Assembly (NCBI GenBank): GCA_031266655.1
Contig: JAISAP010000047.1
Location: forward strand, 1 to 51,505
Length of the DNA: 51,505 nucleotides
Source of the DNA: Holosporales bacterium
GTDB taxonomy: Bacteria > Pseudomonadota > Alphaproteobacteria > UBA3830 > JAIRMZ01
Reading direction: 5' to 3'
The notes under the pieces are model-generated. The model searched no databases. It worked only from the letters and a program-made list of their open reading frames with translations, and had not been told where the DNA came from. Below are positions 15,849 to 50,924 of this stretch, one piece after another. Position 1 is the first letter of the stretch. Each line of letters starts with the position of its first letter. Made by a program: the position numbers and the translations under genes.

Positions 15849-17246
15849 CTAAGGGGAGAGCTTTCCCTCTTTGCAGCGAGAAATGGGGATTTGTAGGAAT
15901 TTCAATTTGCGATGCAGAGCGGAGCGCTCCATGCCGACGAACTCCGCGGTTTGAGAGATGTTGCCCGAGAAACGTTGCACCTGTGCGGTCAAATAATCGC
16001 GTTCGAAGAGATTCCGGGCATCTTTCAGGGGGAGAGCAATCAGGCGCGAAGCTTGAGAGGAAGAAAGGGTCTGTTCTGCGGAAATCGAAATCTCCGGTGG
16101 AAGGAAATCGAGACCAATCTCCGCCTCTTCCGATCCGGAAGCCATGATGAGAATCCACTCCACCACATTGCGCACTTGCCGAACGTTTCCGGGCCAATGA
16201 TAGGATTGCAGGGTTGTCAGTAATTCGGCGTTCATGGCGCGCGGAGGCATGCCGAAAAACTCTTCAGAATGGTCCAAGAAGTGCTTAATGAGCGGAGCAC
16301 TATCCTCACGACGCTCCGCAATGGGGGGAATCTCTATCGGGACGATCCTCAGACGGTAATACAGATTTTGGAGCAAGTTGCTTCCTCCGGCCTGTAGCTC
16401 TTCTGGAGAAAGGGATGTGGAGCTCATGATGCGGACGTCTGTTTGCAGAAAACGCGTGCCACCCACGCGCCGAAAGGCACCTTCCTGAAACATCTGGAGG
16501 AACTTTGCCTGGATGTCCGTTGGCATATCCGTCACTTCCTCCAGGAACAGGGTTCCCCCTTCCGCCTGTTCGAGGAGCCCTTTTCGGACGCCCGTGGCGG
16601 TCTCCTCTCCAAAGAGGTCCTTCTCCAGCTGCACCGCGTCTTTCATTGAGCAGTTCACCCCAACAAACGGAGCGGTCTTTCGATGGGATTTTTCATGGAT
16701 AAGGTAGGCGACATCCTCTCCCTCTCCCCCGATGGGGCTATGGAGAAAAACGCGACTGTTCGTGGGGGCCACCTTGTCCAGGAGGCGGCGGATCGCCCCT
16801 ATGGCATGGGAGGACCCGATGAGGCAAGTGTCACGATGTTTTTTCTGGCGCAGGCAGGAGTTTTCTTCCTTCAGACGCGCCACCTCGCACCCTCTCCGAG
16901 CCACCGAGAGCAGCCGGCTGGCGACAAAAGGTTTCTCCACGAAATCGTAGGCCCCTTTGCGTACCGCTTCCAGTGCGACTTCAATGGTGCCATGACCGGA
17001 GATCATAACGACCGGAATATCTGGGAATTTCTTTTGCAGCTTTTCCAGAAGCGCCAGTCCCCCGGAAGAGTCTCCATCTAGCCACAGGTCCAGAAAGATC
17101 ATGGTAGGTTTGTGGTGTGCGACGAGATCCCATGCCTCAGCGGAGCTGCTTGCCAGCAATGCGTCATATCCCTCGTCCTCGATGAGCTCCCCTATGAGGC
17201 GCCGCACCTCCGGCTCATCGTCCACAATGAGGATATTGGGGGTCAT
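15849..17246 (-). CDS. ntrX: NtrX-type response regulator (receiver + degenerate AAA+ + Fis-type HTH)
   Basis: Receiver ILIVDDEPEVR...D. The central domain aligns to NtrC-family AAA+ but has SPIGGEGED in place of the GESGTGKE Walker A, and EETATGV in place of GAFTGA. It retains WPGNVRQ and a C-terminal HTH (ISQTAEFVGMERSALHRKL). The ATG at 17246 overlaps the ntrY stop as ATGA. Confidence 0.85.
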   Translation of the reverse strand: MTPNILIVDDEPEVRRLIGELIEDEGYDALLASSSAEAWDLVAHHKPTMIFLDLWLDGDSSGGLALLEKLQKKFPDIPVVMISGHGTIEVALEAVRKGAYDFVEKPFVASRLLSVARRGCEVARLKEENSCLRQKKHRDTCLIGSSHAIGAIRRLLDKVAPTNSRVFLHSPIGGEGEDVAYLIHEKSHRKTAPFVGVNCSMKDAVQLEKDLFGEETATGVRKGLLEQAEGGTLFLEEVTDMPTDIQAKFLQMFQEGAFRRVGGTRFLQTDVRIMSSTSLSPEELQAGGSNLLQNLYYRLRIVPIEIPPIAERREDSAPLIKHFLDHSEEFFGMPPRAMNAELLTTLQSYHWPGNVRQVRNVVEWILIMASGSEEAEIGLDFLPPEISISAEQTLSSSQASRLIALPLKDARNLFERDYLTAQVQRFSGNISQTAEFVGMERSALHRKLKFLQIPISRCKEGKLSP

Positions 17247-19468
17247 GCCTGCTGGCCCCTGTCCTTCTCCAAGAGGAACGTCAAACACACTTCTGCACCC
17301 TTTCTCCGATTCTTTAATACCATGGATCCTTTATGGTCTTGCACGATCTTCTTGGCGATCGCAAGACCGAGGCCTGTGCCTCCCTGGGAAAAAGTCACGT
17401 AGGAATCGGTGAGATCCTCTAGGCGCGCTTCCGGAAAGCCGGGACCATTATCCAAGAAGGTTATTTTAACATTTTTCTTCCCTTTTGAAAGACAGATTTC
17501 GATCGCTGGGGGTCTCCCCAGAGGAGTGGGGCCTTCTAGCAAAGCGTGCGCTGAGTTCTTGAGGAGATTGAGAAATGCCTGTTGGAGGAGCCTTTCGTCC
17601 CCCTCGATCGTCGCGGCACTCTCTTCCTTCTTGCAGGTGAGCGTGACCTGAATGGTGGGGTAAGTCGTGCGCGCGAGAAACACCGCTTGCTCACAGAGCT
17701 TCTGCAGGTCGCAGGTACGCAAGCTGGGCTCGGGGAGGCGCGCAAAGAGGCTGAACTCATCCAGAAGCTTGCGGATGGTATCCACTTGCTGCGTAATGGT
17801 CTCCGTGAGCCTTTCGAAGGTATCAAGCTCCGTTGCGATTTGCGCGCTGTATTTCCGATGGAGGCGCTCCGCCGCAAGCTGAATAGGTGTGAGTGGGTTC
17901 TTGATTTCATGAGCAAGACGGCGCGCCACATCTCCCCAAGCCGCCTTCTTCTGCGCGGCAATGAGATCCGTTAAGTCGTCAAACGTCACCACCCATCCAT
18001 CGAATTGGTTCTCGCGGGACGTTGGCGTGAAGCGCAGCAAAAGCGTCCGCCACTCTCCGGATAATTTGAGAGGGATTTCTGCCTCGTGTAGGTTTTTGAG
18101 AGGATCGCGGGCTGCTTCTTCCATGGTTGCCGCGAACTCTGGGAAAAATCCGCCAAAGTCTCGACCTATGCAGGGCGATTTTTCCACCTTCAAAAGGGAG
18201 ATGGCAGTTTTGTTCAGAAAAAGAATGATGCCCTGCGCATCCACGCGAATGGTGCCACAGGAAATGCTGGAAAGGACGTTTTCGACAAACTGGTGGCGTT
18301 CCTCAAGAAGGGCATTGGTATGCGCGAGCGCGCGCTGCTGCTCCTGCAATTCCTCCGCCATCTCGTTAAAAGTGCGCTGCAAGAGGTGGAGCTCGTCGCG
18401 CTGATGCCCCTCTTTCAGGGGAATGCGGATCGCCAGGTTCCTGGCCTTCATACTCCGCGTTGCTGAAATCAATTGACTGATGGGGCGTACGATGTCTGAA
18501 GAGACAGCGAGAGCAACAATCATCGAGGAAAAAACAAAGAGCAGCGCCACGAGCAGAAAGGTGAAGGCAAATGTGACCTCTAGCTTCCATCGCTCGGAGA
18601 AAGTCCGCATGTAGTCGCTGACCATTTTCCGCACCCTTGTGAGGTGTGTCATGACTTGCGCATCGACATCTCTCCCCACGAGGAGAAAAGCGCGTTCTCC
18701 TCCGAAATCAAGGCCCACTAGGGCGCGAATATGTCCGGAAGATGCGTTGAGCAGCACCGCGCTTTGGTGCAACGCCTCTTCCAGGGCTTGACGCCGAACA
18801 TTTTCAAACTCCAGCGCATAACTGAGGGGAGTGCGTGCCATGACCTCGAGGGAAGAGTCGAGGAGGATGGCCTCAGAGAAGGATTTCAAGGAAGAGATCT
18901 TCGTCAAAATGGCGCAAAGCGCCTCTTCTCTGTCCAGGACCTCCGGGATATGCGTCTCGACGAGCTGCGCCATGGTAGAGGCGTCTGCAAGGATTTTTTT
19001 CTTGTGTTCCTCAAAATACGTTTCTGCGACCCGGAGGGACTCTTGCAAAGATTGCTGATGCCGCTCATTGAACCAGGACTCGAGGGCTCCGTGGAGGAAA
19101 GTGGCGGCAAAAAGCGCCACAGAGAGGGAGGGGACGACCGTCAAGAGGGAAAAAATGGAGACAAAACGCCCTTGCAAGCGCGCGCCCGGGAGCTTTTTGC
19201 GATGCGCAACCCATAGGGCAAGAAAGCGTCGTCCAACGAGGTAAAATAAAATAAGGCCGAGGAGAATGTCTCCGTAGATGACGGCAAGCGCATAGCCGTT
19301 ATAGGCGAGGGTTTTTTGCGCGATTTCTATGTAAGTGACGGCGCTGAGGACGGTTACCAACGCAAGGAGAAGGGAGATCCAATGGTTGCGGATAGGGTGT
19401 AACAAGGTAGATGCGACTTTGTACCCGATGGGACGGTGCAGCAAGCTTCTCTCCTGTTGAGTTCTCAT
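17243..19468 (-). CDS. ntrY: NtrY-type sensor histidine kinase (TM-HAMP-PAS-HisKA-HATPase)
   Basis: N-terminal TM segments, a HAMP-like linker, a PAS region, the H-box AHEIKNPLTPIQL, and G-boxes DNGPGF / GGTGLGLAI. The ATG at 19468 (MRTQQERS...) is preferred over the track start at 19681. Confidence 0.88.
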   Translation of the reverse strand: MRTQQERSLLHRPIGYKVASTLLHPIRNHWISLLLALVTVLSAVTYIEIAQKTLAYNGYALAVIYGDILLGLILFYLVGRRFLALWVAHRKKLPGARLQGRFVSIFSLLTVVPSLSVALFAATFLHGALESWFNERHQQSLQESLRVAETYFEEHKKKILADASTMAQLVETHIPEVLDREEALCAILTKISSLKSFSEAILLDSSLEVMARTPLSYALEFENVRRQALEEALHQSAVLLNASSGHIRALVGLDFGGERAFLLVGRDVDAQVMTHLTRVRKMVSDYMRTFSERWKLEVTFAFTFLLVALLFVFSSMIVALAVSSDIVRPISQLISATRSMKARNLAIRIPLKEGHQRDELHLLQRTFNEMAEELQEQQRALAHTNALLEERHQFVENVLSSISCGTIRVDAQGIILFLNKTAISLLKVEKSPCIGRDFGGFFPEFAATMEEAARDPLKNLHEAEIPLKLSGEWRTLLLRFTPTSRENQFDGWVVTFDDLTDLIAAQKKAAWGDVARRLAHEIKNPLTPIQLAAERLHRKYSAQIATELDTFERLTETITQQVDTIRKLLDEFSLFARLPEPSLRTCDLQKLCEQAVFLARTTYPTIQVTLTCKKEESAATIEGDERLLQQAFLNLLKNSAHALLEGPTPLGRPPAIEICLSKGKKNVKITFLDNGPGFPEARLEDLTDSYVTFSQGGTGLGLAIAKKIVQDHKGSMVLKNRRKGAEVCLTFLLEKDRGQQA

Positions 19469-19517
19469 TGTGTAGCATTTTTGATGGTGGAAGACGACTG
19501 AGGCGAAGTAAGGCTTT

Positions 19518-19830
19518 TTACGGCAGCAGCGGGCTGGGTCCCGTAGGAGGAGGGAAGCGGGAGAAAGCTTGCTCTGACTCTTCTGTGAGAGGCCCTTCGA
19601 AGGTAACGGTGTGTTCATAGTCGGGTGTGGGATCAAAGTTGAGGAGCACCGCGGCCATTCTGCGGAGATACGCCAGCACATTGGCTTTGGTGATGCGATG
19701 CTTTCCCGCCTTAATTGACCGAAGAATATAGCGATTCACCCCTATGCCGTAATGAATGTGGTCATAATAGTTGGCTGTATTTCCTGTAATCTCCGCCACA
19801 TCGTCGAAGGTGTAAAGGTGGATGTTGGGG
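19518..19830 (-). pseudogene. Orphan C-terminal gene fragment of unknown function, truncated by the adjacent IS remnant
   Basis: ORF 19518..19904 (...HLYTFDDVAEITGNTANYYDHIHYGIGVNRYILRSIKAGKHRIT...). Its 5' end runs into the transposase remnant with no credible start or RBS. No family recognised. Confidence 0.3.
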
Positions 19831-19836
19831 GAGGGT

Positions 19837-20520
19837 CTATGTTTGGCTCTCGCCCAGCATCTTCTCCTTAATCGACAAACTGAGGAGATTCTCACCCCTG
19901 CCATCGTACCGGAACCTACCCTCTTTCACGCGCAAGAGAAAAACATCGCCTCTTAAACCATTAAACCCAACACAACGCCGCTTCGCGAAGCTCCAAAAGG
20001 CCTCCATGCTGTTAATGGGGTTCTTGCCCCTAGCAAACTCATTGTGGCAAGGGAAAGGTTCGGCAGTGGTCGTCAATAAGCAGTCCATTATGGGCCTTTC
20101 AGGTACGCGTAGGGACGTCTGACCCTGCAAGAATTCTCCCCTGAGTATATAGGGAATAGCTCCTCTCTTGAGGAGAGTCAGGCTTTCTGGAAGCGAAGTG
20201 AACGAAGGGGTACGCAATGGAAGAAGTAGCCCAGAAAGCGTCTAACAGAGGTGGCAAATAGACCGTACCGAAGGGCATGAAGGGTGTCCCCCCGCATACC
20301 TCCTCCCGTCTTTCTTCCATGCTCCGTAGAGCCCGCAGCAAACAAACGCCGCAGTCTTTCCTACTGCTCCACAGCCTCTTTTACCCCGACCTTTCTTCGC
20401 TCCAAAAGACCTCTTATCCAGTACGAAGACGCCACAATCTCGAGAATTCTCCGTGTCCTCGCAGGAACAGGTTCGTTCCCTCCCGAAAGATGGGCAGTAT
20501 TCCGGTGGGGTTTTGAGTAA
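19837..20520 (-). pseudogene. Decayed IS1595/ISXO2-like DDE transposase, frameshifted and 5'-truncated
   Basis: Minus-strand translation gives three conserved blocks: ...VLDKRSFGAKKGRGKRGCGAVGKTAAF..., then ...GTVYLPPLLDA..., then ...FARGKNPINSMEAFWSFAKRRCVGFNGLRGDVFLLRVKEGRFRYDGRG... These are the blocks I associate with ISXO2-like IS1595-family transposases. They lie in at least three different frames, and the N-terminal zinc-ribbon part is absent. Confidence 0.65.
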
Positions 20521-20607
20521 TATATTTGCCTAATTAGGCGTAGTTATTTTACATAACAGGAAGTATTCTGTAGGCCCTTAACTTATTGTAGTACAATGTA
20601 ATTTGTG

Positions 20608-20733
20608 CCGACTAAAATCATCTAACCAACTCCATATATGGATATAAAAATATCTATAATTGGCATATTATTAATACTTTTTTAATAAAGTACCATTAAA
20701 GTCAAAAAATATACGCCAACCGCAGGAGTTTGG
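20608..20733 (+). promoter_or_regulatory. AT-rich conserved upstream element (copy 1), duplicated with the paralog pair
   Basis: CCGACTAAAATCATCTAACCAACTCCATATATGGATATAAAAATATCTATAATTGGCATATTATTAATAC... aligns with 22071-22177 (CCGACTAAAATAATCTAGTCAGTCTACAATTTGGATATAAAATACTTACTAAATGACATATTTTAAGAC...). Confidence 0.5.
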
Positions 20734-21660
20734 ATGCCCCTATACACCAAGAAAGCACTGCTTATAGCGGTAGTACTCTTCTCATTCCTCCCCAAGGGAG
20801 AGGGCATGAATCCGACAAAAGTCATCACAACAGGAGAGGAGCGGCTGCTGTGTGCGATGACCAGCGATCCTGCCAGGTTGCAACACATATTGTTGCATTT
20901 TGTCAGCAATAAGGCCGATATTCAGGGTATTATTTCCCTCATTGACATTAGAGAGAAACTCCTCCATGGCATTTTGTGCCTAGAAGGCGAGGATCCAACA
21001 GGATTTGTACAAAACATGGTAAAATACTTCCTGGCAGAAGCTAAGCGAAAACGCTCCTCTTGCTTTTTCGGCAGAGGAACCGTTTTGATGCCGGACGCAT
21101 CGAATCCAGATATACGGATCCTCACTACGGGATTGGAGCTAAGAGGAGCCCTTGTAGGCGTGAATGAACGGTATCGCTTCTACATGTTCTCTCATAACAG
21201 GAAAATCGCAAAAGTTAAGGGCGGAAAGCTTTATAAATTTAACCCCGCTGGCAGGGCACGTCTCGTAGAGGGCTTCTCGGGAGGGAGAGATATGGAATTA
21301 AGAATACACCTTCGACACTATACAGATTCCCATGGAGCACTAGTAAGAACGGAAGGCACTCTTTTCTCTGCGTTGAGTGAAGAGCTCTTGGGTGAAGTAC
21401 TGCACTACGAAAAGGAAGTAACGCCGTTCTCCCATCTTGTAAACTTTTTGGAAACAACCTACACGGGCGATGCCTATAGGTGGGTGCAAGACCGTCAAGA
21501 AAATTTGTACGATCTCGTCTGCAAATTTCGCGCAGAATTGCCTCAAGGGGCGGATCTCCAGCAGGCTCTTTTCTGCGTCACTGGGAAAGCTTTGGGAGGA
21601 ACCATAGGAAGGGAAGAGCAACAAGAACTATGTGGACACCTTTTTTCTCTGCTTCATTAA
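20734..21660 (+). CDS. Exported protein of unknown function, paralog A of a tandem pair
   Basis: AGGAG lies 5-6 nt upstream of the ATG. Hydrophobic leader KKALLIAVVLFSFLPKGEG|M. Aligns end to end with 22178..23116 through shared blocks HILLHF, HGILCL.GE.P..FVQ, EAKRK, F.SG.RDMEL and EGTLFSAL.E. No known domain recognised. Confidence 0.8.
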   Translation: MPLYTKKALLIAVVLFSFLPKGEGMNPTKVITTGEERLLCAMTSDPARLQHILLHFVSNKADIQGIISLIDIREKLLHGILCLEGEDPTGFVQNMVKYFLAEAKRKRSSCFFGRGTVLMPDASNPDIRILTTGLELRGALVGVNERYRFYMFSHNRKIAKVKGGKLYKFNPAGRARLVEGFSGGRDMELRIHLRHYTDSHGALVRTEGTLFSALSEELLGEVLHYEKEVTPFSHLVNFLETTYTGDAYRWVQDRQENLYDLVCKFRAELPQGADLQQALFCVTGKALGGTIGREEQQELCGHLFSLLH

Positions 21661-21669
21661 GCGAGAAGC

Positions 21670-21698
21670 GAAGGGGGCGGAAGAGCAGCGCCCCCTTC
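21670..21698 (+). terminator. Candidate intrinsic terminator hairpin after paralog A
   Basis: GAAGGGGGCG (21670-21679) pairs perfectly with CGCCCCCTTC (21689-21698), 10 nt after the stop codon. The 3' tail is only weakly T-rich. Confidence 0.5.
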
Positions 21699-21822
21699 CC
21701 CTGTTCTTGGATGTTAACGGAAACTTCTTTGTTTCCAACCCAGATAGAATGAAGTCTCTTGAGAAAAACGGTACAAAAAACAATTCGCAAGAACAGTAGT
21801 GCTGACGTTTCGCGTGTTCTCT

Positions 21823-21833
21823 CCCCCCCCCCC
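21823..21833. repeat. C11 homopolymer tract in the spacer between the paralogs
   Basis: ctCTCCCCCCCCCCCACCg: eleven consecutive C at 21823-21833. Confidence 0.9.
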
Positions 21834-22070
21834 ACCGTTAAAGAAAAACTCCATGGAGGAAAACACCATTAACTATACTTATGAGCGCTTTTGAAAGTTA
21901 ATATTGCTGTAGGGTGCTGAAAAGAATTCTCGAGAGTTTAGTTTGACGAGAGTCACTACGTTGCTGAACCCTCGTAGAGAAGCGTTTAACCAAGCTTTAA
22001 TGACTTGAAAAGTAACTGGGCAGAATGTGAGTTCCGATATAACAACAGAACCTCATCAGTGCGCCATATA

Positions 22071-22177
22071 CCGACTAAAATAATCTAGTCAGTCTACAAT
22101 TTGGATATAAAATACTTACTAAATGACATATTTTAAGACTTTCTTAACACAATACGATTAATATCGAACGACAGTCA
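22071..22177 (+). promoter_or_regulatory. AT-rich conserved upstream element (copy 2)
   Basis: See 20608..20733. The order of conserved blocks is the same, and the distance to the coding region is similar. Confidence 0.5.
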
Positions 22178-23116
22178 GTGGCAGTAAATGAACGAGTGCA
22201 AAAAAAGTTACTGCTTGTTGCGGTCACATTCTTGTCATTCCTTCCTAAAGGAGGAGGAATGTCTCAGCCCGGAACAATAACGGGCGAAGATATAAAGCCT
22301 CTTCAGGCGGCAATTAACGATACGCGCAGACTGGAGCACATACTACTTCATTTTGCTCAGGATGAAGCTGCAATTGAGGGAATCATGGGTCAAGCTCGCA
22401 TGGGTGACAAGAAGTTTCATGGCATTCTGTGTCTAAATGGCGAAAATCCAGTAAAATTTGTACAAGAAACGTTGTTCCACTTCCTTGAGGAAGCCAAGCG
22501 AAAACCCAATTCCGATTTTCTTACAAAAGGTGAAGCGTTGCTTCCATTGGGGCCAGAGGATCCGAACGCAAAGATTCGTGTCACGAAACTTTCCCTAGAA
22601 GGAACCCTCCCAGGTGTAGATACAGACAAATATAGTTTTCACCTGTTCCATTTTGGAGAGAAAGTTGCAGAAGTCAGGAAGGGAGTACTTTACAGGATTG
22701 ATCCCGACGGCGGAAAATATCCCATTGAGGATTTCTCTGGAAGTAGAGACATGGAACTCTCAATGTTTCTCCGGTGTTACGTTTCGGATCGGGATATAGT
22801 AAAGGCGGAAGGTACTCTCTTCTCTGCGCTAGAAGAAAAGGTTTTTTCCACGGTCCTCTTTGAACCGATCCAAAAGCTGGAAGCCTTTTTGGTGGACTCT
22901 GCGCCCCAAATTGCCGCGCTAGGTGCACATGAGTGGTCTCAAGACAATTCAGACCTGTACAATCTTCTTTTTGAGGCTAAGGAGTGTGCCGTGTCTAAAA
23001 GGCTGGACTATAGGAACGTTCTCTCCACTGTTATCAGAAGAAGCCTGAACGGAACTGCCGTAGGATCGGCTGAACGAACAATGCTATTCGGATATTCTAT
23101 GGACCTGGTTTACTAA
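22178..23116 (+). CDS. Exported protein of unknown function, paralog B of the tandem pair
   Basis: Leader KKLLLVAVTFLSFLPKGGG|M. Alignable throughout with 20734..21660. The start is ambiguous: GTG at 22178 or GTG at 22196. The internal ATG at 22259 is preceded by AAAGGAGGAGGA. Confidence 0.8.
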   Translation: MAVNERVQKKLLLVAVTFLSFLPKGGGMSQPGTITGEDIKPLQAAINDTRRLEHILLHFAQDEAAIEGIMGQARMGDKKFHGILCLNGENPVKFVQETLFHFLEEAKRKPNSDFLTKGEALLPLGPEDPNAKIRVTKLSLEGTLPGVDTDKYSFHLFHFGEKVAEVRKGVLYRIDPDGGKYPIEDFSGSRDMELSMFLRCYVSDRDIVKAEGTLFSALEEKVFSTVLFEPIQKLEAFLVDSAPQIAALGAHEWSQDNSDLYNLLFEAKECAVSKRLDYRNVLSTVIRRSLNGTAVGSAERTMLFGYSMDLVY

Positions 23117-23229
23117 TCAATCGCAAAGAGGAGTGGGAGAGAATAGCTCTTTCCCACATGCGCTTGTGCTCTGACGGAAACTTTCCTTACACTAACCCGA
23201 AGGGCGTTGAGCCCGTTAAGGAGCAGAGT

Positions 23230-23817
23230 ATGGGAAGGAACCTTGCAAAGGCAGTCGCTAGTTTGACAGTTGTATTGGCGTTTTGTGGCGTTACGGTAAA
23301 GGGGAGTTCTATGGAAGGGGTATCCATATACCCCGATATAGAAGAAACTGAATTCGGAAAGCGACCCATTTTTCGACTTGTCAAAACCGACAGGAAAGTT
23401 ATGAAAAGTGACTATCTGAAAGGGGTAGGGGGATCTGTAGTTTTACCTCAAACGCCAGAAGAGCTGGAAAAGCGCTACCAGCAGTATGCAAAGGTGGGGG
23501 ATGTTTATAAGCTGATAGACTGTGACTGTTTTCAGAAGGAGGGTTTTCTAACGTACGAGATCGTCTTCTCCTGCTTTGAAAAAGCAAGCCCGGCGGACCT
23601 TTTCCCAATGCTCAGGAGCTACGCCACTCTCCTGCGGAAACACTCAAGCGGGACTTTTGTCTCTTTCTTCTCGGGAGGGCTTGATCATAGTTTGAGTGGA
23701 GCACGTACCATGTTGGAACGGTCGCGCGATGCGTGTGACATGACGGACAAGGACCTGTTCCTGGACGTTCTTGCTGAAGAATTTGATAACATTTCCGGAC
23801 TTTTCAAATCTCAATAG
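23230..23817 (+). CDS. Small exported protein of unknown function
   Basis: AAGGAG lies 7 nt upstream of the ATG at 23230. Leader MGRNLAKAVASLTVVLAFCGVTVKGSS|M. Track ORF begins at 23158. No recognisable domain. Confidence 0.7.
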   Translation: MGRNLAKAVASLTVVLAFCGVTVKGSSMEGVSIYPDIEETEFGKRPIFRLVKTDRKVMKSDYLKGVGGSVVLPQTPEELEKRYQQYAKVGDVYKLIDCDCFQKEGFLTYEIVFSCFEKASPADLFPMLRSYATLLRKHSSGTFVSFFSGGLDHSLSGARTMLERSRDACDMTDKDLFLDVLAEEFDNISGLFKSQ

Positions 23818-24088
23818 ACGTTTATGTTCCTACTCTCAATAAAACAGCCGTTCTAAAGGAGAACTTCTTGCTAGTAGTCGTGCCGAGGATGACTCCATTC
23901 GGCAAAACAGGAATGTAAGGTTCAGGGTGCGAAGAAACGTAGATGAAGAGGGACTGTATTCTTGTAGAAGGAGTTTTGGTCGTGCTTTATTCGGGGACAT
24001 ACGCGTGAGACGAAAGAAGACCCTAATTTGGGTTGGCATGGTTTTGTTGGGATAGAGGCTACAGCGAGTAGTAAGGATGCTCCTCAAA

Positions 24089-25732
24089 ATGAAGCAACGG
24101 AAGATTTTAGAGGCGATTGTTGTTGGCTCCTCAGGGGCTCTGAGTGCCTTTTCCGAGGTTGATGCAATGTGGTGGGATCTTGATTCCCTCCGGAGCGTGG
24201 CTGTTGTTCAAGGAGAATTAGTTACACCCTCTTCTCAGCCTGAAGAAGGTGTTGTGTTATGGCTAGGCACAGAGGCCGCTCATGCTTGGGGGCCTGATTG
24301 GCGCTTTAGCTTGTGTTACGTTGTTGTTCCCTGGAACATGGAGGTGCTGGGTGTGAGGTGCTTCGAAGGGTGTCACTTTCTCACCGCTGTTGTCTTCGAA
24401 TGGGGTTCTGCACCCCGAGTCATAGCAGAAAGAGCCTTCGCTGATTCCGGCCTTCAATCTTTCACTATTTTTGCGAGTGTGGGGGTTCTTGGAAACGAAT
24501 GTTTCGCAGATTGCCAATCTCTTGCCTGCGCCGTCTTTGAGGTTGGTTTTCCGCTCCGGACTATCGGGAAGGGGGTTTTCGCACGTTCTGGTCTGCAAGC
24601 ATTCACTATTCCCGCGGGCGTGGAGGTGCTGGCTGCAGGGTGCTTCGACAGTTGCCAATCTCTCACTTCCATCGTTTTTGAACAGGGTTCTAAACTTCTA
24701 GCCGTAGAAGAAAGGGCGTTTGCCGATACCGGTCTGCGATCCTTCACTATTTTTGCGAGCATAGAGGTGCTTGGGAAAGAATGTTTCGCAGGCTGCCAAT
24801 CTCTTGCCTGCGCCGTCTTTGAGGTTGGTTCTCCGATCCAGACTATCGGGGAGGGAGTTTTTGCCGGCTCTGGTCTGCAAGCATTCACTATTCCCGCGGG
24901 CGTGGAGGTGCTGGCTGCAGGGTGCTTCGACGGTTGCCAATCTCTCACTTCCATCGTTTTTGAACAGGGTTCTAAACTTCGAGTCATAGAAGAAAGAGCG
25001 TTTGCCGATACCGGTCTGCTGTTCTTCCATGTTTTTGCGAGTGTGAGGGTTCTTGGAAACGCATGTTTCGCAGACTGCCAATCTCTTGCCTACGTTACCT
25101 TTGAGGTCGGTTCTCCGCTCCAAACTATCGGAGAGGGAGTTTTTGCCCGCTCTGGTCTGCAAGCATTCACTATTCCCGCGGGCGTAGAGAAGATTGGAGA
25201 AGGCTGTTTTGCCTATTGCCAATCGCTTTCCAGTGTTGCCTTTGAGGGTGGTTCGCATCTCCAAACTATCGGGGAGGGAGTTTTTGCCGGCTCTGGTCTG
25301 CAAGCATTCACTATTCCCGCGGGCGTGAAGGTGCTGAGTGCAAACTGCTTTGCAGGTTGTCAACTTCTCACCGCCCTTGCCTTCGAACCGGGTTCTCAAC
25401 TCCGAGCCATAGGAAAAGCGGCCTTTATCGACTGCGCCAACTTGCCGTCCATTTGCATTCCCGCGGGCGTGGAGAAGATTGGAGAAGGCTGTTTTGCCTA
25501 TTGCCAATCGCTTTCCAGTGTTGCCTTTGAGGCTGGTTCGCATCTCCAAACTATCGGGGAATGTACCTTCCTTGCTTCCAGTATATGCTCCATAGGGATC
25601 CCCGCGAGCGTAGAGGAGATTGGGGAATGTTGTTTTCTGGATTGCCAATCGCTTGGCTCTGTCACCTGCAACAGTTCGCGATTTATCGTAGTGCGTCGAG
25701 GCTGTGGGTGGGAAGTTTATAAGCGCGAATGA
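24089..25732 (+). CDS. BspA-type leucine-rich-repeat protein (LRR_5-like), LRR1
   Basis: About 20 units of the ~23-24 aa repeat ..IPAGVEVLAAGCFDSCQSLTSIVFEQGSKLLAVEERAFADTGL.., with a 26-aa leader from the ATG at 24089 (the alternative ATG at 24077 is the track start). Nucleotide repeats are in 141/282-nt register. Confidence 0.88.
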   Translation: MKQRKILEAIVVGSSGALSAFSEVDAMWWDLDSLRSVAVVQGELVTPSSQPEEGVVLWLGTEAAHAWGPDWRFSLCYVVVPWNMEVLGVRCFEGCHFLTAVVFEWGSAPRVIAERAFADSGLQSFTIFASVGVLGNECFADCQSLACAVFEVGFPLRTIGKGVFARSGLQAFTIPAGVEVLAAGCFDSCQSLTSIVFEQGSKLLAVEERAFADTGLRSFTIFASIEVLGKECFAGCQSLACAVFEVGSPIQTIGEGVFAGSGLQAFTIPAGVEVLAAGCFDGCQSLTSIVFEQGSKLRVIEERAFADTGLLFFHVFASVRVLGNACFADCQSLAYVTFEVGSPLQTIGEGVFARSGLQAFTIPAGVEKIGEGCFAYCQSLSSVAFEGGSHLQTIGEGVFAGSGLQAFTIPAGVKVLSANCFAGCQLLTALAFEPGSQLRAIGKAAFIDCANLPSICIPAGVEKIGEGCFAYCQSLSSVAFEAGSHLQTIGECTFLASSICSIGIPASVEEIGECCFLDCQSLGSVTCNSSRFIVVRRGCGWEVYKRE

Positions 25733-25748: not shown

Positions 25749-27392
25749 CTATTCTGATCTTTTCATAGGAGGAAGTCCGAGAATAGGGCCAGAACGCCTG
25801 ATCATCCGAGCAGCGACGACAGCGGCGTTCCATCCTGCTGCGGTATGACCGAAAGTTTGAGGAGTTGCTTTCGGCTCGTCTAACAGGACATAGACGAGAT
25901 AACGCGGAGAAGAGGCCGGGAAGGCGCCCACGAAGGTGCAGATGTTGGCATCCTTGCGGTATCCTCCTCTCTCTCTCACTTTCTCTGCTGATCCTGTTTT
26001 GCCAATGACAGAATACTCTTCCACTTCCGCTTTACGGCTTGTCCCTGCCGTCACAACCAGACGAAGAAGGGAACACACCTGGTGAGAGATTTTTTCCGAT
26101 AGGATGCGTCGTCCAGGTCCTGCCGACCCCGTCTTCAAGATCGTCGGGGTATGGTAGAGACCATTGTGGATGATACCCCCCACCACGGAAGCAAAGTGCA
26201 AGGGGTTGAATGCAATGCCATGTCCAAAGGCAATGGTTGCAGAGTTCACCTCTCCCCAAGACTTAGGATACAGCGGCGCCTGGATCTCACAGAGCTCGAA
26301 GGGAAGCGCCGACAACAGGCCTAGTTTCTGGAAAAAACTGCGTTGTGCTTTCGCGCCAATTTTCATCGCAATTTTGGCAGATCCGATGTTGGAAGACCGT
26401 GTTAAAATCTCCGCGACCGTCAAGGCACGTCCCTCTCTATGAAAATCGTGGATGGTGAAGCGTCCGATCCTGAGCGGTTCGCTGACATCAAATTGCGTGT
26501 GGATGGTCACCAACCCACTCTCCAAAGCCAGTGCCGTATTGATGATTTTGGCCGAGGAGCCAGGTTCAAAGACCGCGCAAGTCGCTCGATTGAAAAGCGC
26601 TTTCGTCGAAGCCGTCTTGACCTGATTGGGATCAAAATCAGGAAGAGACACTAACGACAGGATTTCCCCCGTTTCCAAATCCATCACAAGGCTCGCAGCG
26701 CCCAGAGCGTTAAATTCCTGCATTCCTTCGATGAGAATCTCGCGCACTGCGTGCTGCAGGGTCATATCTACCGACAGGGCGATGGGCTCCGAAGAAGAGG
26801 ACAGGGCGGCGTCAAACGCCTTTTCAGCTCCCGCAATTCCATGATTATCGGTGTCTGTGAGCCCAACAATATGGGCAAACAACGCCCCATCGGGATAAAC
26901 GCGTCGCTCTGTCTTCTGAAAGGACACTCCAGGAAGACCAAGTCGCAAGACCCTCTCCTGTTCGGTGGGCGTAAGATGGTGCTTGACCCAAACAAATCCT
27001 TTGGGAGAAGTAAAACGCCGCACAAGCTCTTCTGGATCGAGATCGGGGAGCGCCCTGGAAAGGCACCGCGCATCATTCACCGGATCGAGGAGATCTCTGG
27101 GATTGGCGTACACGGAAACCGTTGGCAAGCTCGTCGCAATGAGCTCTCCCTGGCGGTCCGTAATGTCTGAACGCGCAAATCGCGCAGGCGCTTCAAGGGA
27201 GGCAAAAGAAGTACCTTCTAGGGCTTCTCCAAAGACCATCACCTGGAAAAGCTTGGCGATGATGAGGCTCGCGAAAAACACAAAGACACTCATCCCGAGA
27301 ACAATGCGTTGCCGACGTTTTTCTACAGACTGGCGTAGCGATTCTCCGTACTTGTCCATTAAGTGCAGAAGATCGTGCATACCTGCCTTCAT
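25749..27392 (-). CDS. ftsI: Peptidoglycan D,D-transpeptidase FtsI (PBP3)
   Basis: N-terminal TM anchor and a transpeptidase domain with SSAK (SXXK), SSN and KTG motifs. It lies immediately downstream of ftsL. Confidence 0.92.
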   Translation of the reverse strand: MKAGMHDLLHLMDKYGESLRQSVEKRRQRIVLGMSVFVFFASLIIAKLFQVMVFGEALEGTSFASLEAPARFARSDITDRQGELIATSLPTVSVYANPRDLLDPVNDARCLSRALPDLDPEELVRRFTSPKGFVWVKHHLTPTEQERVLRLGLPGVSFQKTERRVYPDGALFAHIVGLTDTDNHGIAGAEKAFDAALSSSSEPIALSVDMTLQHAVREILIEGMQEFNALGAASLVMDLETGEILSLVSLPDFDPNQVKTASTKALFNRATCAVFEPGSSAKIINTALALESGLVTIHTQFDVSEPLRIGRFTIHDFHREGRALTVAEILTRSSNIGSAKIAMKIGAKAQRSFFQKLGLLSALPFELCEIQAPLYPKSWGEVNSATIAFGHGIAFNPLHFASVVGGIIHNGLYHTPTILKTGSAGPGRRILSEKISHQVCSLLRLVVTAGTSRKAEVEEYSVIGKTGSAEKVRERGGYRKDANICTFVGAFPASSPRYLVYVLLDEPKATPQTFGHTAAGWNAAVVAARMIRRSGPILGLPPMKRSE

Positions 27393-27396
27393 CCTC

Positions 27397-27750
27397 TTAG
27401 GGCTCTTTCCGCTGGGGGGCCTTCAAGACCTCCTCCTCCGCCTCGATGAGACTCCCAAGCGCGTCGCGCACAGGGGCAACGCGGAGAAAATCCTCTTTTG
27501 GCATCAGCTGCTTCGGCATGAGGGGCGCAAATCCCAAATGCTTCTGCGCTAGCTTCTGTACGCGCTGGGCATCGGTTGCATACTTCCATTCCGCCTTGAG
27601 CACGTGGTGCTGCTCTTCCTCCTTGTCGATGGCTCGCAAGAGAGCGCGCACATTCTCTTCGATCTCCACAACACGATACTTTGAGTAACACAGCACAAGA
27701 CCGCACAGTATGCCGAGAGATAAGAGTAAGAGGACAGATCTGCGCATCAC
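27397..27750 (-). CDS. ftsL: Cell division protein FtsL
   Basis: 117 aa, a single N-terminal TM segment (VLLLLSLGILCGLVLCY) and then a coiled coil. Located between rsmH and ftsI; its start overlaps the rsmH stop as ATGA. Confidence 0.8.
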   Translation of the reverse strand: MMRRSVLLLLSLGILCGLVLCYSKYRVVEIEENVRALLRAIDKEEEQHHVLKAEWKYATDAQRVQKLAQKHLGFAPLMPKQLMPKEDFLRVAPVRDALGSLIEAEEEVLKAPQRKEP

Positions 27751-28649
27751 GGCTGCTTCACGCCGACTCGCATTTTGGCCGAGCGCGCTCGCGGATGCAT
27801 GCGTTTTTCCTCCTCAGAAGGCGTCATGGGCTTTTTGTACAGAGGGGCGAAAGGGCCTTTCCCAGGGAGAGGCTTGCCTGAGATCGGATCGACAGGCGCC
27901 TCCGGTCCGTTGAGAAAGCGCTTCACCAGCCGGTCTTCCAGGGAGTGAAACGCGACCACGACCAATCGCCCCCCGGCCTTGAGGTACTTTTCCGCATGAA
28001 GGAGCGCCTTTTGCAACTCTCCCAACTCGTCGTTTACAAAAATCCGGAGGGCTTGAAAAGTGCGGGTCGCAGGATCTCTTAGGGGAGAACCCCGCACGAC
28101 AGAGGCGACAAGGCGCTGTAGATCCCAAGTCGTTTGCAAGGGCCGTTTACGGCGCGCCTCCACAATTTTCCTGGCAATAGCACGCGATTTGGGTTCTTCT
28201 CCGTAGGTCCACAAGATTTCCGAAATCTGCTCCTCCGGAAAAGTGTTCACCACCTCCGCAGCGGAGAGAGCGTTGGCGCCCATCCTCATATCCAGCGGAC
28301 CCTTTTTCTGAAAGGAAAATCCCCTCTCTGGTACGTCAATTTGCATCGCAGAAACCCCGAGATCTAGCACCATTCCATCAAGGGTTGTGTATCCCGCCCG
28401 AGCGAGCAGGGCGGGGATCTCTGAGAAGCAAGCTGTAAAAAATTGGAAGCGCTCTCCAAATTGCTCGCGCAACGACTGTGCATAAGGAAGAGCGGCCGAA
28501 TCCCGATCGCAGGCAAGAACGCGGCAGGTGCAGGAGGAGAGAAGAGCGCGGCTATACCCTCCCGCACCAAAGGTCCCGTCTAGGTACGCCCCCCCCTCTC
28601 TTGGAGCGAGCTGGGTGAGGAACTGAGAGAGTAAGACCGGTTTGTGCAT
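27747..28649 (-). CDS. rsmH: 16S rRNA (cytosine1402-N4)-methyltransferase RsmH (MraW)
   Basis: HKPVLL...YLDGTFGAGGYS...DLGVSAMQID...RGFSF...FHSLEDR: canonical RsmH blocks. The ATG at 28649 (MHKPVLL) is preferred over the track start at 28694. Confidence 0.95.
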   Translation of the reverse strand: MHKPVLLSQFLTQLAPREGGAYLDGTFGAGGYSRALLSSCTCRVLACDRDSAALPYAQSLREQFGERFQFFTACFSEIPALLARAGYTTLDGMVLDLGVSAMQIDVPERGFSFQKKGPLDMRMGANALSAAEVVNTFPEEQISEILWTYGEEPKSRAIARKIVEARRKRPLQTTWDLQRLVASVVRGSPLRDPATRTFQALRIFVNDELGELQKALLHAEKYLKAGGRLVVVAFHSLEDRLVKRFLNGPEAPVDPISGKPLPGKGPFAPLYKKPMTPSEEEKRMHPRARSAKMRVGVKQP

Positions 28650-28866
28650 AACTGGAAAAGAGCTCCCTCTGTTTCTACAAGCGCTCAAACGCATCCTCGT
28701 ACTCTAGCAGAAAAAGTCCCTCCTGCAGATGACGTCCTGAGCATGGGCTCTTCCTTCGATTTGACGTTCCTTCCCAGTGAAATTTACGGTTTTTTCATTC
28801 TCGTCACGTTAACTGTCTGCAACCTGTCCTGCGCCACGCGCACAGTCAAAAACAAAGGTGACAAAA

Positions 28867-30441
28867 ATGAAACAGCAAAGACGTTTAGGAACGATGGTCG
28901 CATGGGCTTTGGGAGTGCTGGGAGCATGTCCCGCAACTGAAGCGATGCGGCAGCTTCTGGAAGAGTCTCCCGACGGACAAGAGCGGGTTATCCTTCCCGC
29001 AGAGCTGAAAACGCTGCATGCGAGCCTTTTCGCCAATCACTTCGCTCCTTTCTCTGTTACTTTTGATCAGGGCTCTCGTTTTACGGAGATAGAAACACAC
29101 CTTTTCGCTTATTCCAGGATTCAGTCCGTTATCCTTCCCGCAAGCGTAGAAGTGCTTGAGGCAAGTTGCTTCGCCCATTGTCCATCGCTCATCTCCGTCA
29201 TGTTTGAAGCTGGTTCCTACCTGACCATCATCAGGGAGAATGTTTTCCAAGATTCTACTTTGCAGTCCATTGTGATCCCTGCGCGCGTGGAGGTCATGGG
29301 TGCACGGTGCTTCTCGGGGTGCCACTCGCTTGCTACCGTTGTCTTCGAAGCGGATTCCCGACTCGCGAGATTGGAGGAAGGCGTTTTCTGGAGCTCTAGC
29401 CTGCCCTCTCTCACCCTTCCGGCAAGCGTAGAGGTGATGGCAGAAAAGTGTTTTCAATTCTGTCAGTCTCTTGCTGCGCTTGCCTTTGAGACCGATTCTC
29501 GGTTGAGAAGCATAGAGGCGGACGCCTTTGCTTATTCTGGCTTGCCCTCTATCACCCTCCCAAGGAGTGTGGAAATGCTGGGAGTTGGGTGTTTCAGATA
29601 CTGCCGATCTCTTGTCTCCCTTGTCGTTGAGGAAGATTCTCGACTCGGAGATGTGGGAAGCGAAGCGTTTGCGGGAACGCTTTTGACAAGCATTGATTTC
29701 CCGGGTGGAGTGGCTCTTGGGGACTGTGTGTTTCAAGATTCTTGCATCCGAGAAATATACCTTGGAGGTGCCTTAGTGGACACTTCCAGTGACGCTTACG
29801 CAGGTGCCAAAATGCTGCAAAAACCGAAAGTGAGACAGGATGCACCACCCCCCAAGCCCTCTGAGGAGGGACGTTTGCAGGCACAGTTCCTCCTCAGCCA
29901 AATACAGGCCCAAGATCCGGCGTCTCCGATGGATACGAAAGAGATGCTGAAAGAGCTTTCCCCCCTCGTCCAGATGCGGAACCTAGAGGATCTGAACAAT
30001 GCCTTGGCTTCCTCCAGTTCTGGCGTTTCTGTGCACTCCGAGATGCATCTCCGGCAGCAAGGAGGGCTGCAGCGTACTGACCAACCTCTAGGTCTGGCTC
30101 TCGACGGAACAGGACCCTTTCAGAGCGCCAAAGAAGGCCTCTTGGGCAAATCCGCGGGCCTCTCCCTCCAAGATTGGTCCTTGCCGCAAGGGGGTCAGGG
30201 GATGGAAACCGGCGATGGCTCCCATGATGCGATTCCTGCTTCAGGGGCCTTCCGAACTGGGGTCTCGGGGGAGGGTGGATTGAGCATAATTGCCTCAGGC
30301 ACTCTGGAGCGCTCTCCCACAGATCTTGCCCACGAACTTTCCGAAATGATCCGCGCCCAATACGCTGCCAGTACCAAAGTCCTCTCTACCCTCGACGATA
30401 TGCTCGATATGTGCAACGTATCAGACGCGCCAAATGCCTGA
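28867..30441 (+). CDS. BspA-type LRR protein with a non-LRR C-terminal domain, LRR2
   Basis: AAAGGTG lies 6 nt upstream of the ATG at 28867 (the track start is the GTG at 28858). 26-aa leader MKQQRRLGTMVAWALGVLGACPATEA|M. About 11 LRR units (..LPASVEVMAEKCFQFCQSLAALAFETDSRLRSIEADAFAYSGL..) followed by ~210 aa with no repeats. Confidence 0.85.
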   Translation: MKQQRRLGTMVAWALGVLGACPATEAMRQLLEESPDGQERVILPAELKTLHASLFANHFAPFSVTFDQGSRFTEIETHLFAYSRIQSVILPASVEVLEASCFAHCPSLISVMFEAGSYLTIIRENVFQDSTLQSIVIPARVEVMGARCFSGCHSLATVVFEADSRLARLEEGVFWSSSLPSLTLPASVEVMAEKCFQFCQSLAALAFETDSRLRSIEADAFAYSGLPSITLPRSVEMLGVGCFRYCRSLVSLVVEEDSRLGDVGSEAFAGTLLTSIDFPGGVALGDCVFQDSCIREIYLGGALVDTSSDAYAGAKMLQKPKVRQDAPPPKPSEEGRLQAQFLLSQIQAQDPASPMDTKEMLKELSPLVQMRNLEDLNNALASSSSGVSVHSEMHLRQQGGLQRTDQPLGLALDGTGPFQSAKEGLLGKSAGLSLQDWSLPQGGQGMETGDGSHDAIPASGAFRTGVSGEGGLSIIASGTLERSPTDLAHELSEMIRAQYAASTKVLSTLDDMLDMCNVSDAPNA

Positions 30442-30520: not shown

Positions 30521-31117
30521 TTACTCAGGAGAAGGAGTCCAGAGTATAGGTAGTGCTCCATCATTCGGAGTATTGAGCCGTGGCCCAATAACAGTGGGCT
30601 GCGACGGCTTAGCCGCCTTGAAGTTCAACGGAGCCGGATAACGATAGCGCCTACGATGGCCTCCCTCCGCCCGAAGAAGGGCAAGATCTCGTAGCCTCGC
30701 ACACTCTCCACGAGAGTTCTCATTGAACAGTGCCCCTGTGTGTCTGTTCAAATCATCGTACCTCCCATCCCTCGTTAAATTAAGATATCTGCTTTTCGTA
30801 GGACTATCGGCTCCCATGGGCAGCAACACTGCCGTAGCTTCGTTCGGAATTGAATAGAATGCCCAAGTCCTCTGATGATCCAATGTCTCTCCATTCCAAA
30901 TGACTGTCAGATCTACACGCCCAAACCTCGACTTCAAGCTGTCACCAACAGCTTCCTGTTTATTCATGTTTCTCGCTCGTATGACCACTTGGCCTGGCAG
31001 AAGGAATCTCATCTCCGATTGATCGTTCTCCGACTGGGAAGAATCGGGAGACATGGCCTGCGCAACCATTCCATAGCAAAACAGCACCCCTAACATCGAT
31101 CCTAATATTTTTCTCAT
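30521..31117 (-). CDS. Small exported protein of unknown function
   Basis: Leader MRKILGSMLGVLFCYGMVAQA|M from the ATG at 31117. Track ORF starts at 31234 inside an extremely AT-rich spacer. No recognisable domain. Confidence 0.65.
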   Translation of the reverse strand: MRKILGSMLGVLFCYGMVAQAMSPDSSQSENDQSEMRFLLPGQVVIRARNMNKQEAVGDSLKSRFGRVDLTVIWNGETLDHQRTWAFYSIPNEATAVLLPMGADSPTKSRYLNLTRDGRYDDLNRHTGALFNENSRGECARLRDLALLRAEGGHRRRYRYPAPLNFKAAKPSQPTVIGPRLNTPNDGALPILWTPSPE

Positions 31118-31439
31118 TGTCTTTTCCTTTATTTTAATACAGTACATTTCGTACCATAATATACATATAGTGAAAAAAATAAAAAAGACAAGCAGAAAAA
31201 AATATAATGGACAAAAGTCGTCGAGTTTTGGCAATTTCTTCGGAAGGCAGAGTTTCGCCTATGCTGCGCGCAGCGAGGCCTCCCAAGGGACCTACACTGC
31301 TGACCAAGAAGGGTATGAGACAGAGTCATGAGATATGCATACTCCACCCTATCCATTCCCACTGCGAAAATCTGTGTTTCTATAGCTTGTTCTACCGGAG
31401 AATTCGTACATAATGCACAGCAGACAGAGGCAACGAACC

Positions 31440-50860: not shown

Positions 50861-50924
50861 GATTAGAGTATTCCTACTACGTGCAGTGTACTTGCGATGA
50901 CGTGTAATGCGAATAGTGCCCCAA

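Follow-up and report, generated by a model that had tools for sequence, protein, structure and literature searches.

What are the two paralogous proteins, A and B, that are encoded in tandem with a third small gene, ORF3, on the forward strand of contig JAISAP010000047.1, and do the three products form an exported system that is particular to the organism's lineage? The window analyzed here is the complete 51,505-bp contig, which belongs to a metagenome-assembled genome (MAG) of a Holosporales bacterium with locus tags LBJ70_. The Holosporales live as obligate symbionts of protists, and almost nothing is known of the molecules with which they meet their hosts (PMC11909080). A and B were found to represent a family of exported proteins that is genuine, undescribed, and restricted to one lineage, with ORF3 as a conserved exported partner (coordinates are given in Table 1). 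The general kind is common, namely, orphan accessory secretome genes of an obligate symbiont. The reading that we prefer, tentatively and with somewhat less than even confidence, is that of a fast-turnover, Sec-exported, nonenzymatic protein pair at the envelope of the symbiont or at its interface with the host.

All three open reading frames (ORFs) of the initial annotation are present on the plus strand in the ORF list, and the full-length paralogy proposed there for A and B was confirmed by an end-to-end alignment with 122 identities in 307 amino acids (aa) (40%; E value, 3e-65). Each of the shared blocks that had been listed (RL.HILLHF, HGILCL.GE.P..FVQ, EAKRK, FSG.RDMEL, and EGTLFSAL.E) recurs in this alignment.

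The N termini of A, B, and ORF3 each consist of a Lys/Arg-rich n-region, a hydrophobic core of 11 to 12 residues, and a c-region with small residues at positions -3 and -1, the best 11-aa Kyte-Doolittle windows reaching 2.5 to 3.2. The n-, h-, and c-regions and the small residues at -3 and -1 are found in every family member. The leader of A (residues 1 to 24) reads MPLYTKK-ALLIAVVLFSFL-PKGEG, that of B ends in VQKK-LLLVAVTFLSFL-PKGGG, and that of ORF3 (residues 1 to 27) reads MGRNLAK-AVASLTVVLAF-CGVTVKGSS, each being followed by Met. On a rule-based reading, the leaders of all three have the n-, h-, and c-regions that mark substrates of Sec and signal peptidase I. The lipobox [LVI][ASTVI][GAS]C was not found: the leaders of the A/B family have no Cys, and the LAFC of ORF3 and the MVFC of its homolog at locus L003 (described below) have Phe at -1. 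With no lipobox and a core that is not long enough to anchor the proteins in a membrane, the straightforward reading of these sequences is that A, B, and ORF3 are exported by Sec and cleaved by signal peptidase I, and the exported status first proposed for them is upheld at that level. Good Shine-Dalgarno (SD) sequences precede the leader-containing starts of A (AGGAG, 5 nucleotides [nt] before the ATG) and ORF3, whose frame is open from 23158 and whose likely start, ATG 23230, has AAGGAG 6 nt upstream. The features of an outer-membrane beta-barrel were not found, the C-terminal 90 residues being helical in the predicted model and the termini being ..SLLH, ..DLVY, ..SLLH, and ..SYRK.

No other part of the protein is as well conserved as the leader, in which mean pairwise identity is 62% (residues 6 to 25) versus 23 to 36% in other regions. 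Synonymous sites are saturated (pS, 0.6 to 0.88), and the ratio of nonsynonymous to synonymous substitution (dN/dS) in the leader is 0.07 to 0.22. The combination of saturated synonymous sites and low leader dN/dS indicates translation of the leader and constraint on its protein sequence, which is unusual for an ordinary signal peptide.

The family was found to be real but extremely narrow. Besides A itself, a word-indexed search returned a single protein, the third paralog P0002 (LBJ70_00100; 58% identity), which lies on another contig of the same MAG and adjoins an ABC transporter operon that includes a periplasmic binding protein. A profile built from the three paralogs and run against all 1.84 billion (1.84e9) representative proteins recovered six: A, B, P0004, P0005, P0007, and P0006. 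P0004 and P0005 are fragments from MAG LBD15, and P0007 is a full-length protein from MAG LBQ26 with 24% identity; P0006, a 1,288-aa repeat protein, was rejected as spurious (hhalign probability, 1.8%). All real family members are annotated as "Holosporales bacterium" and come from only three MAGs among the 1.84e9 proteins (LBJ70, LBD15, and LBQ26), which answers the question of distribution raised by the initial annotation. A scan of one genome per species (185,579 species) gave a single locus, in the Holosporales MAG isolate Pcl387_bin109, and scans of metagenome contigs with family and ORF3 patterns gave no relatives in a collection that apparently does not include the source project.

The description of these proteins as having no recognizable domains also held. 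Searches of Pfam (to an E value of 10, and also with the mature sequences and a consensus fragment), NCBIfam, PHROGs, PADLOC, and PDB profiles returned nothing credible for A, B, P0002, P0007, or ORF3; the best PDB sequence match, yeast RXT2 (E value, 0.003), aligns to the leader and is spurious. An AlphaFold2 model of A, built on a six-sequence alignment, has a predicted local distance difference test score (pLDDT) of 78.7 and a predicted template modeling (TM) score of 0.59. Its predicted layout comprises a leader helix, a disordered stretch (residues 17 to 28), short helices (33 to 73), a strand-helix unit (78 to 105), eight strands (112 to 214), and a C-terminal bundle of six helices (216 to 305). 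Foldseek searches of this model against PDB and BFVD gave a best E value of 5e-3, probabilities of no more than 0.35, and TM scores of no more than 0.16, and the top matches (Sec24, a vWA protein, astrotactin, RNase R, and Kir channels) were dismissed as noise. As neither profile nor structure searches place the family in a known family or fold, it is regarded as undescribed. The model of ORF3, from 2 sequences, has a pLDDT of 42 and is unusable.

One partial likeness was pursued. The six-sequence profile retrieved from PDB a block of Hsp70 ATPase-domain chains at E values of 0.4 to 1.2, in which family positions 49 to 102 align with approximately Hsp70 313 to 372 and the family pattern RL.HILLHF...HGILCL.G..P..FVQ..L..F stands against RFEEL... 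of Hsp70. A 10-sequence Hsp70 alignment was then assembled from Escherichia coli and plasmid-borne genes and compared by hhalign with shuffle controls: family positions 60 to 106 align with Hsp70 columns 288 to 334 (approximately DnaK 317 to 363) at a score of 25.3, which none of 60 column shuffles reach, in a comparison that was chosen post hoc. These results raise the possibility that the family is a very divergent, truncated Hsp70 derivative, made up of the end of the nucleotide-binding domain and the substrate-binding domain; the order of predicted secondary-structure elements is similar (a beta-alpha unit, eight strands, and a helical bundle), and the substrate-binding domains of DnaK, BiP, and Ssb1 are among the noise-level Foldseek matches. 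Beyond the roughly 50-residue helix-strand-helix stretch and this order of elements, however, the A/B family is unlike Hsp70. It has no ATPase domain, its other 200 residues are dissimilar (the C-terminal 200 aa score 11.3 against the substrate-binding domain versus a shuffle mean of 12.3, with 41 of 60 shuffles reaching that score), and the model cannot be superposed on the DnaK substrate-binding domain (TM score, 0.12 to 0.14; root mean square deviation, 16 Å). Nor are the database-wide E values significant, and Pfam HSP70 (PF00012) is not matched even at an E value of 10. Homology to Hsp70 was rejected, since only a beta-alpha motif of about 47 columns stands out and the remainder is noise; the motif looks convergent or unproven, and descent from Hsp70 is barely credible.

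It had been speculated from the pair alone that an invariant Cys, His, and Asp might form a catalytic set, which would make these proteins secreted hydrolases. C82, H78, H51, H55, and D186 are indeed common to A and B, and C82 and H78 also occur in P0004 and P0007. The invariance of the Cys and His residues, true between A and B, is lost across the family: in P0002, which is intact and encoded in the same genome, HGILCL is replaced by FSISLL and QHILLHF by KSMSRHF, so that Leu, Phe, and Ser stand at the positions of C82, H78, and H51, respectively, and D186 is unaligned in P0007. Broad retention is seen only for H55 and for the RD of FS..RDxE, and the columns that are invariant throughout the family hold the structural residues Leu, Gly, Phe, and Thr. 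No Pfam, NCBIfam, PDB profile, or fold match to Cys-His(-Asp) hydrolases (papain-like, NlpC/P60, or transglutaminase-like) was obtained for the family, nor any other peptidase or hydrolase match. The proposed catalytic set is thus contradicted by the wider family, and we give the hydrolase explanation very little credence.

ORF3 appears to be a conserved partner of the family and not a mere neighbor, the link being one of synteny only. At locus L003, in MAG isolate Pcl387_bin109, a family member (9989..10755) is followed after a 9-nt gap by an ORF3 homolog (10765..11394), which is intact, 209 aa long, and 55% identical to ORF3 and has its own leader. The same member-then-ORF3 order is found at L005, on a second contig of the same bin. 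Both loci are linked to mutL, and since they lie beside mutL genes with 81% nucleotide identity, they are orthologous loci that belong to two related organisms. In DNA comparisons, the members at L003 and L005 are closest to B, not A, which argues that B-ORF3 is the ancestral cassette and that A and P0002 are derived duplicates. The adjacent two-gene arrangement is conserved in the window, L003, and L005, and it is not by itself diagnostic of toxin-immunity or defense systems. No decayed ORF3 copy was found behind A. A search for ORF3 homologs yielded two proteins only, namely, P0012, which is ORF3 itself as annotated, and P0013, a relative that comes from a different sample; at a further locus, L004, an ORF3 homolog stands alone, without a leader, directly after a fragment of an insertion sequence (IS) of the IS1595 family. 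Pairwise dN/dS for ORF3 is 0.25 to 0.34. The notion that ORF3 is itself a distant relative of A and B was discarded, as hhalign aligns only the leaders (probability, 0.85%). The two contigs of assembly GCA_031279495.1 that carry the mutL-member-ORF3 locus (L003, 8036..11394; L005, 1..3726) have approximately 70 to 81% DNA identity, and this bin probably mixes two related organisms.

The duplication seems to have taken the 5' region, with promoter and leader, along. Approximately 75 nt upstream of the start can be aligned among A, B, and the unlinked P0002, and the alignment of A with B reaches further upstream. The promoter assigned upstream of A is a putative one whose hexamers the consensus scan did not list, and the promoter-like site upstream of B is suggestive only, such sites not being enriched over shuffles. 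A sigma-54 promoter was considered by eye and rejected, the GG of TGGCA being present only upstream of A and not of B or P0002, and an Rfam search of positions 19400..24200 found no RNA family in the conserved 5' regions. The hairpin that follows the stop codon of A is a weak candidate for a terminator without a U-tract and was missed by the terminator consensus scan. The intergenic region between A and B also contains a run of 11 C's (21823..21833), which may be variable in length or an assembly artifact.

The start of B is damaged. The ATG equivalent to that of its paralogs, at 22188, lies one base out of frame, ahead of a run of seven A's (22200..22206); with eight A's the sequence MNECKKKLLL would be restored, with its length matched to P0002. 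The GTG from which the in-frame leader can be read (22178) has no SD sequence, and AAGGAGG lies in front of the Met that follows the leader (22259). The site may represent a true frameshift, a tract prone to slippage, or a mistake in the assembly, and unless an assembly error or correction by slippage accounts for it, B may be poorly exported or heading to decay. The idea that translation generally initiates internally, at the Met that follows the leader, was rejected, since a strong SD sequence is found there only in B.

Among the intact family members, dN/dS is 0.29 to 0.43 (0.29 for P0002 versus A) at saturated dS (approximately 1 or more), so that selection on the family is purifying but relaxed; the genes look functional on this evidence and on that of the fairly confident AlphaFold model (pLDDT, 78.7), which was obtained from only six sequences. 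The initial annotation had named pseudogenization in sister strains as a finding that would count against it, and this was encountered in part. A, P0002, and P0007 are open over approximately 310 codons, whereas the member at L003 is split over two frames, lacks residues ~53 to 85, and is truncated at its C terminus, and at L005 the member and the ORF3 homolog are both frameshifted. Could all of these ORFs be decaying or nonfunctional, relics of mobile-element cargo that are open by chance? The frameshifts at L003 and L005, the damaged start of B, the adjoining IS remnant (Table 1), and the very narrow distribution are what would be expected of such relics. Three long intact frames at saturated synonymous divergence, with dN/dS of 0.29 to 0.43 overall and 0.07 to 0.22 in the leader, are not, and neither are the conserved promoter-like 5' region and the confident fold prediction for A. 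Relics are highly unlikely, and the genes behave instead as accessory, high-turnover genes, with atypical composition, an IS remnant, variable copy number, and decay in sister lineages.

The module sits between two blocks of core genes. The minus-strand ORFs upstream (15849..19681) are, by eye, presumably ntrX/ntrY-like, and those downstream (25749..28694) are taken, likewise by eye, to be ftsI/ftsL/rsmH; the remainder of the contig carries housekeeping genes, including mfd, pyrG, RNase E, and rpoN. Between the blocks, the G+C content falls to 45 to 47%, versus approximately 55%, and the G+C content at third codon positions (GC3) is 0.43 to 0.50 in the genes of this segment versus 0.56 to 0.64 in core genes. 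The upstream edge of the segment is an IS1595 remnant, of which the broken minus-strand ORFs at 19518..20217 are part and which has no intact ORF. The IS fragment at L004 (358..555) matches NCBIfam NF033547 (transpos_IS1595) at an E value of 7.5e-7 and 29.2 bits, under the 75-bit cutoff. IS1595 remnants thus lie both beside the module and beside the leaderless ORF3 homolog of L004, which suggests IS-mediated rearrangement of accessory genes.

This setting bears on a second explanation, in which A, B, and ORF3 are lineage-specific housekeeping proteins of the periplasm or envelope that serve, for instance, to build the envelope or bind nutrients and do not act directly on the host. The Sec leaders without a secretion-system signal, the purifying selection on the family, the position of P0002 beside the transporter operon and its periplasmic binding protein, and the core-gene neighbors ntrYX, ftsI, and mutL all agree with it. 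It accords poorly with the variable copy number and the disrupted copies in sister lineages, with a position that varies by lineage (ntrY-ftsI here, mutL there), with the atypical GC3 and adjoining IS remnant, and with a dN/dS that is high for a housekeeping gene, so that we regard it as improbable.

The same features of turnover are also those of a toxin-immunity-like pair, which is the main rival to the reading that we prefer. Here, the 32-kDa protein would be a toxin acting in the periplasm and the 19-kDa ORF3 product a coexported immunity protein, in a bacteriocin-like or addiction module shuffled by IS elements. The large-then-small gene order with a 9-nt gap at L003, the targeting of both products to the same compartment, the low GC3, and the adjoining IS1595 remnants are in keeping with such a pair, as is an orphan-immunity pattern, in which the ORF3 homolog at L003 is intact despite decay of the member and that at L004 stands alone by the IS fragment. 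Putative toxin-antitoxin systems are reported for a Paracaedibacter-like Holosporales endosymbiont (PMC8163844). The leaderless homolog at L004 may, however, be a relic itself, A and, as far as is visible, P0002 are intact without an adjacent ORF3 (three members to one ORF3), a Sec-exported toxin would hit the producer's own periplasm, and no catalytic residues are conserved. PADLOC assigned no families to A, B, ORF3, P0002, or P0007, and no toxin, immunity, defense, or delivery domain was found with Pfam, NCBIfam, or PADLOC. Polymorphic toxin-immunity pairs share with this locus a large-then-small cassette, IS association, atypical composition, duplication, decay, and a partner that outlives the first gene, but A, B, and ORF3 differ from them in the absence of toxin, immunity, PAAR, Rhs, and delivery domains, in the Sec leaders on both proteins, and in the 3:1 stoichiometry. 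A toxin-immunity role is unlikely on balance.

The preferred reading, a Sec-exported, nonenzymatic pair with fast turnover, can be put as a sequence of steps. A, B, and P0002 would form a small, fast-evolving family that occurs in one clade of uncultured Holosporales only. Each protein would cross the inner membrane by means of a classical Sec signal peptide and probably be cut by signal peptidase I after G-x-G, which would free a 32-kDa protein in which, as predicted from the model, a short N-terminal part made of helices precedes a beta sheet of eight strands and a bundle of helices at the C terminus. The ancestral unit would consist of a family member and, behind it, ORF3 with its 19-kDa exported product; B-ORF3 would represent this unit here, and A and P0002 would stem from later duplication in which the promoter and leader region was copied as well. 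As no catalytic-type set of polar residues is conserved, a binding or structural role is suggested rather than that of an enzyme, and the protein, probably with ORF3 as its partner, would act in the periplasm, at the surface of the cell, or, once released, where symbiont and host meet. The step with good support is export, which is drawn from sequence rules.

Action on the host is conjecture, by analogy with the Holosporales lifestyle and with periplasmic proteins of Holospora. In Holospora obtusa, infection proteins of 89, 63, and 5.4 kDa are described as periplasmic, with some released to the host during infection, in work cited by a review of the Holosporales (PMC11909080), which also notes that uncharacterized Paracaedibacteraceae are frequent in animal guts, above all those of termites. 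As far as that description goes, these are the nearest known kind, being lineage-restricted, exported proteins of protist symbionts of the same order without a family assignment. They differ from A and B in size, and no sequence relation was detected; release to the host is a property of the Holospora proteins, while A and B are known from sequence alone. The profile search of 1.84e9 proteins, in which Holospora proteomes are assumed to be included, gave no homology to the 89-kDa and 63-kDa proteins.

Several points weigh against the preferred reading. Signal-peptide cleavage was inferred by rule and not with a trained predictor, and Sec export reaches the periplasm only, no secretion-system or surface-anchoring signal being linked to these genes. 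The model of A is built from six sequences only, and the other four models have pLDDT values of 50 to 68; with 5 or 6 members, the absence of conserved catalytic residues cannot exclude an enzyme. Three family members and apparently one ORF3 in the genome are a poor fit to an obligate 1:1 partnership. Finally, the start of B is damaged and the member is disrupted in both LBD15-type loci, L003 and L005, so that the family is dispensable and may be decaying.

As the initial annotation had stated, a leucine-rich repeat (LRR) gene of the BspA type, LRR1, follows the third exported ORF on the same strand. A functional link to LRR1 was not borne out: no LRR genes were found near family members in the available flanks of five related loci (L001 to L005), and the contig itself has at least five LRR regions, so that the adjacency of LRR1 looks incidental and not part of a conserved module. 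A, B, and ORF3 do not match PF13306 (LRR_5). They resemble the BspA-type LRR proteins, which are encoded next door and abundant in the contig, in Sec-type leaders that end in a small-x-small motif followed by Met, and they differ in having no LRR and in an adjacency that is not conserved in other genomes. A tblastn search with LRR1 (24077..25732) located the remaining regions at 28972..29745, 31641..32963, 48251..49450, and 49670..51503, the last of which comprises two minus-strand ORFs (49526..50860 and 50925..51485) and reaches the contig end. Five such regions in 51 kb are a strong local expansion, and the repeats yield long spurious antisense ORFs, such as 24698..25648 on the minus strand (316 aa). 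The LRR protein at 28858..30441 (plus strand) also matches the N-terminal region of FlgD, the flagellar hook-capping protein (residues 344 to 384; E value, 1.2e-6), and Flg_bbr_C, the C-terminal domain of flagellar rod/hook proteins (residues 480 to 517; E value, 8e-7), an odd LRR/flagellar fusion that hints at export via a flagellar-type apparatus.

The Met after the leader is a wider feature of the contig: in all of its accessory proteins with a Sec-type leader, Met directly follows the predicted small-x-small cleavage motif (Table 1). Examples are PKGEG/MN, PKGGG/MS, VKGSS/ME, EVDA/MW, ATEA/MR, KPEA/MQ, EAGA/MQ, KAEA/MQ, VAQA/MS, and MSFG/MQ, and the pattern spans five unrelated families (the A/B family, ORF3, the BspA-LRR genes, and the ORFs at 30521 and 43723). 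It also occurs in the relatives P0002, P0004, and P0007 and in the ORF3 homolog at L003; it is absent from the exported housekeeping proteins encoded at 39480 and 7133, which by eye we take to be LptA-like and a BamE-like lipoprotein, respectively, and from the M48 peptidase at 14394. In GenBank, the starts of B and ORF3 are placed at this Met. The ORFs at 30521..31234 (minus strand) and 43723..44280 (plus strand) have Sec-type leaders and no NCBIfam match, the former having only a below-threshold Pfam match (DUF4131; E value, 0.01), and they may be further members of the accessory secretome. A broader explanation would be a Holosporales accessory secretome with a special leader design, through either a dedicated route of export and processing or selection for an N-terminal Met in proteins destined for the host cytoplasm, A/B-ORF3 being a novel-fold effector pair delivered in this way; we rate it as distinctly improbable.

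Table 1. Positions in the 51,505-bp window of the features discussed in the text
Feature	Position	Strand	Description
IS1595-family transposase gene remnant	19894..20055	-	tblastn with the L004 IS fragment: 57% identity over 54 aa; E value, 1.5e-14
5' region of A, AT-rich, conserved	20660..20728	+	TTGGCA, 20660-20665; 17-nt spacer; TAATAA, 20683-20688; Shine-Dalgarno AGGAG, 20724-20728
Paralog A	20734..21660	+	308 aa; GenBank LBJ70_03345; mature protein, 32 kDa; predicted alpha/beta fold; solo duplicate without ORF3 behind it
GC-rich 10-bp hairpin after the stop codon of A	21670..21698	+	-26.1 kcal/mol; z, -2.2; equaled by 6/200 shuffles
5' region of B, homologous to that upstream of A	22086..22177	+	Promoter-like TAGTCA-16-TAAAAT at 22086-22113
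Paralog B	22178..23116	+	312 aa from GTG 22178; GenBank LBJ70_03350 from Met 22259, 285 aa, leader omitted
ORF3	23230..23817	+	195 aa; GenBank LBJ70_03355 from inner Met, 168 aa; mature protein, 19 kDa, acidic
LRR1, BspA-type LRR protein	24077..25732	+	PF13306; E value, 1e-104
Met-after-leader sites	20734, 22178, 23230, 24077, 28858, 31413, 48152, 43723	+	Leader inspection
Met-after-leader sites	49526..50860, 30521..31234	-	Leader inspection

An orphan family is not surprising in itself, and part of the value of this locus is for annotation, two of its three genes having been annotated without their leaders. What it offers beyond that is a testable set: a 32-kDa exported family without a detectable homolog or fold, a conserved 19-kDa exported partner, and an unusually conserved leader. 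If A, B, and ORF3 were a toxin-immunity pair, they would represent a new toxin fold, and if they do reach the host, they would count as new factors in the symbiosis.

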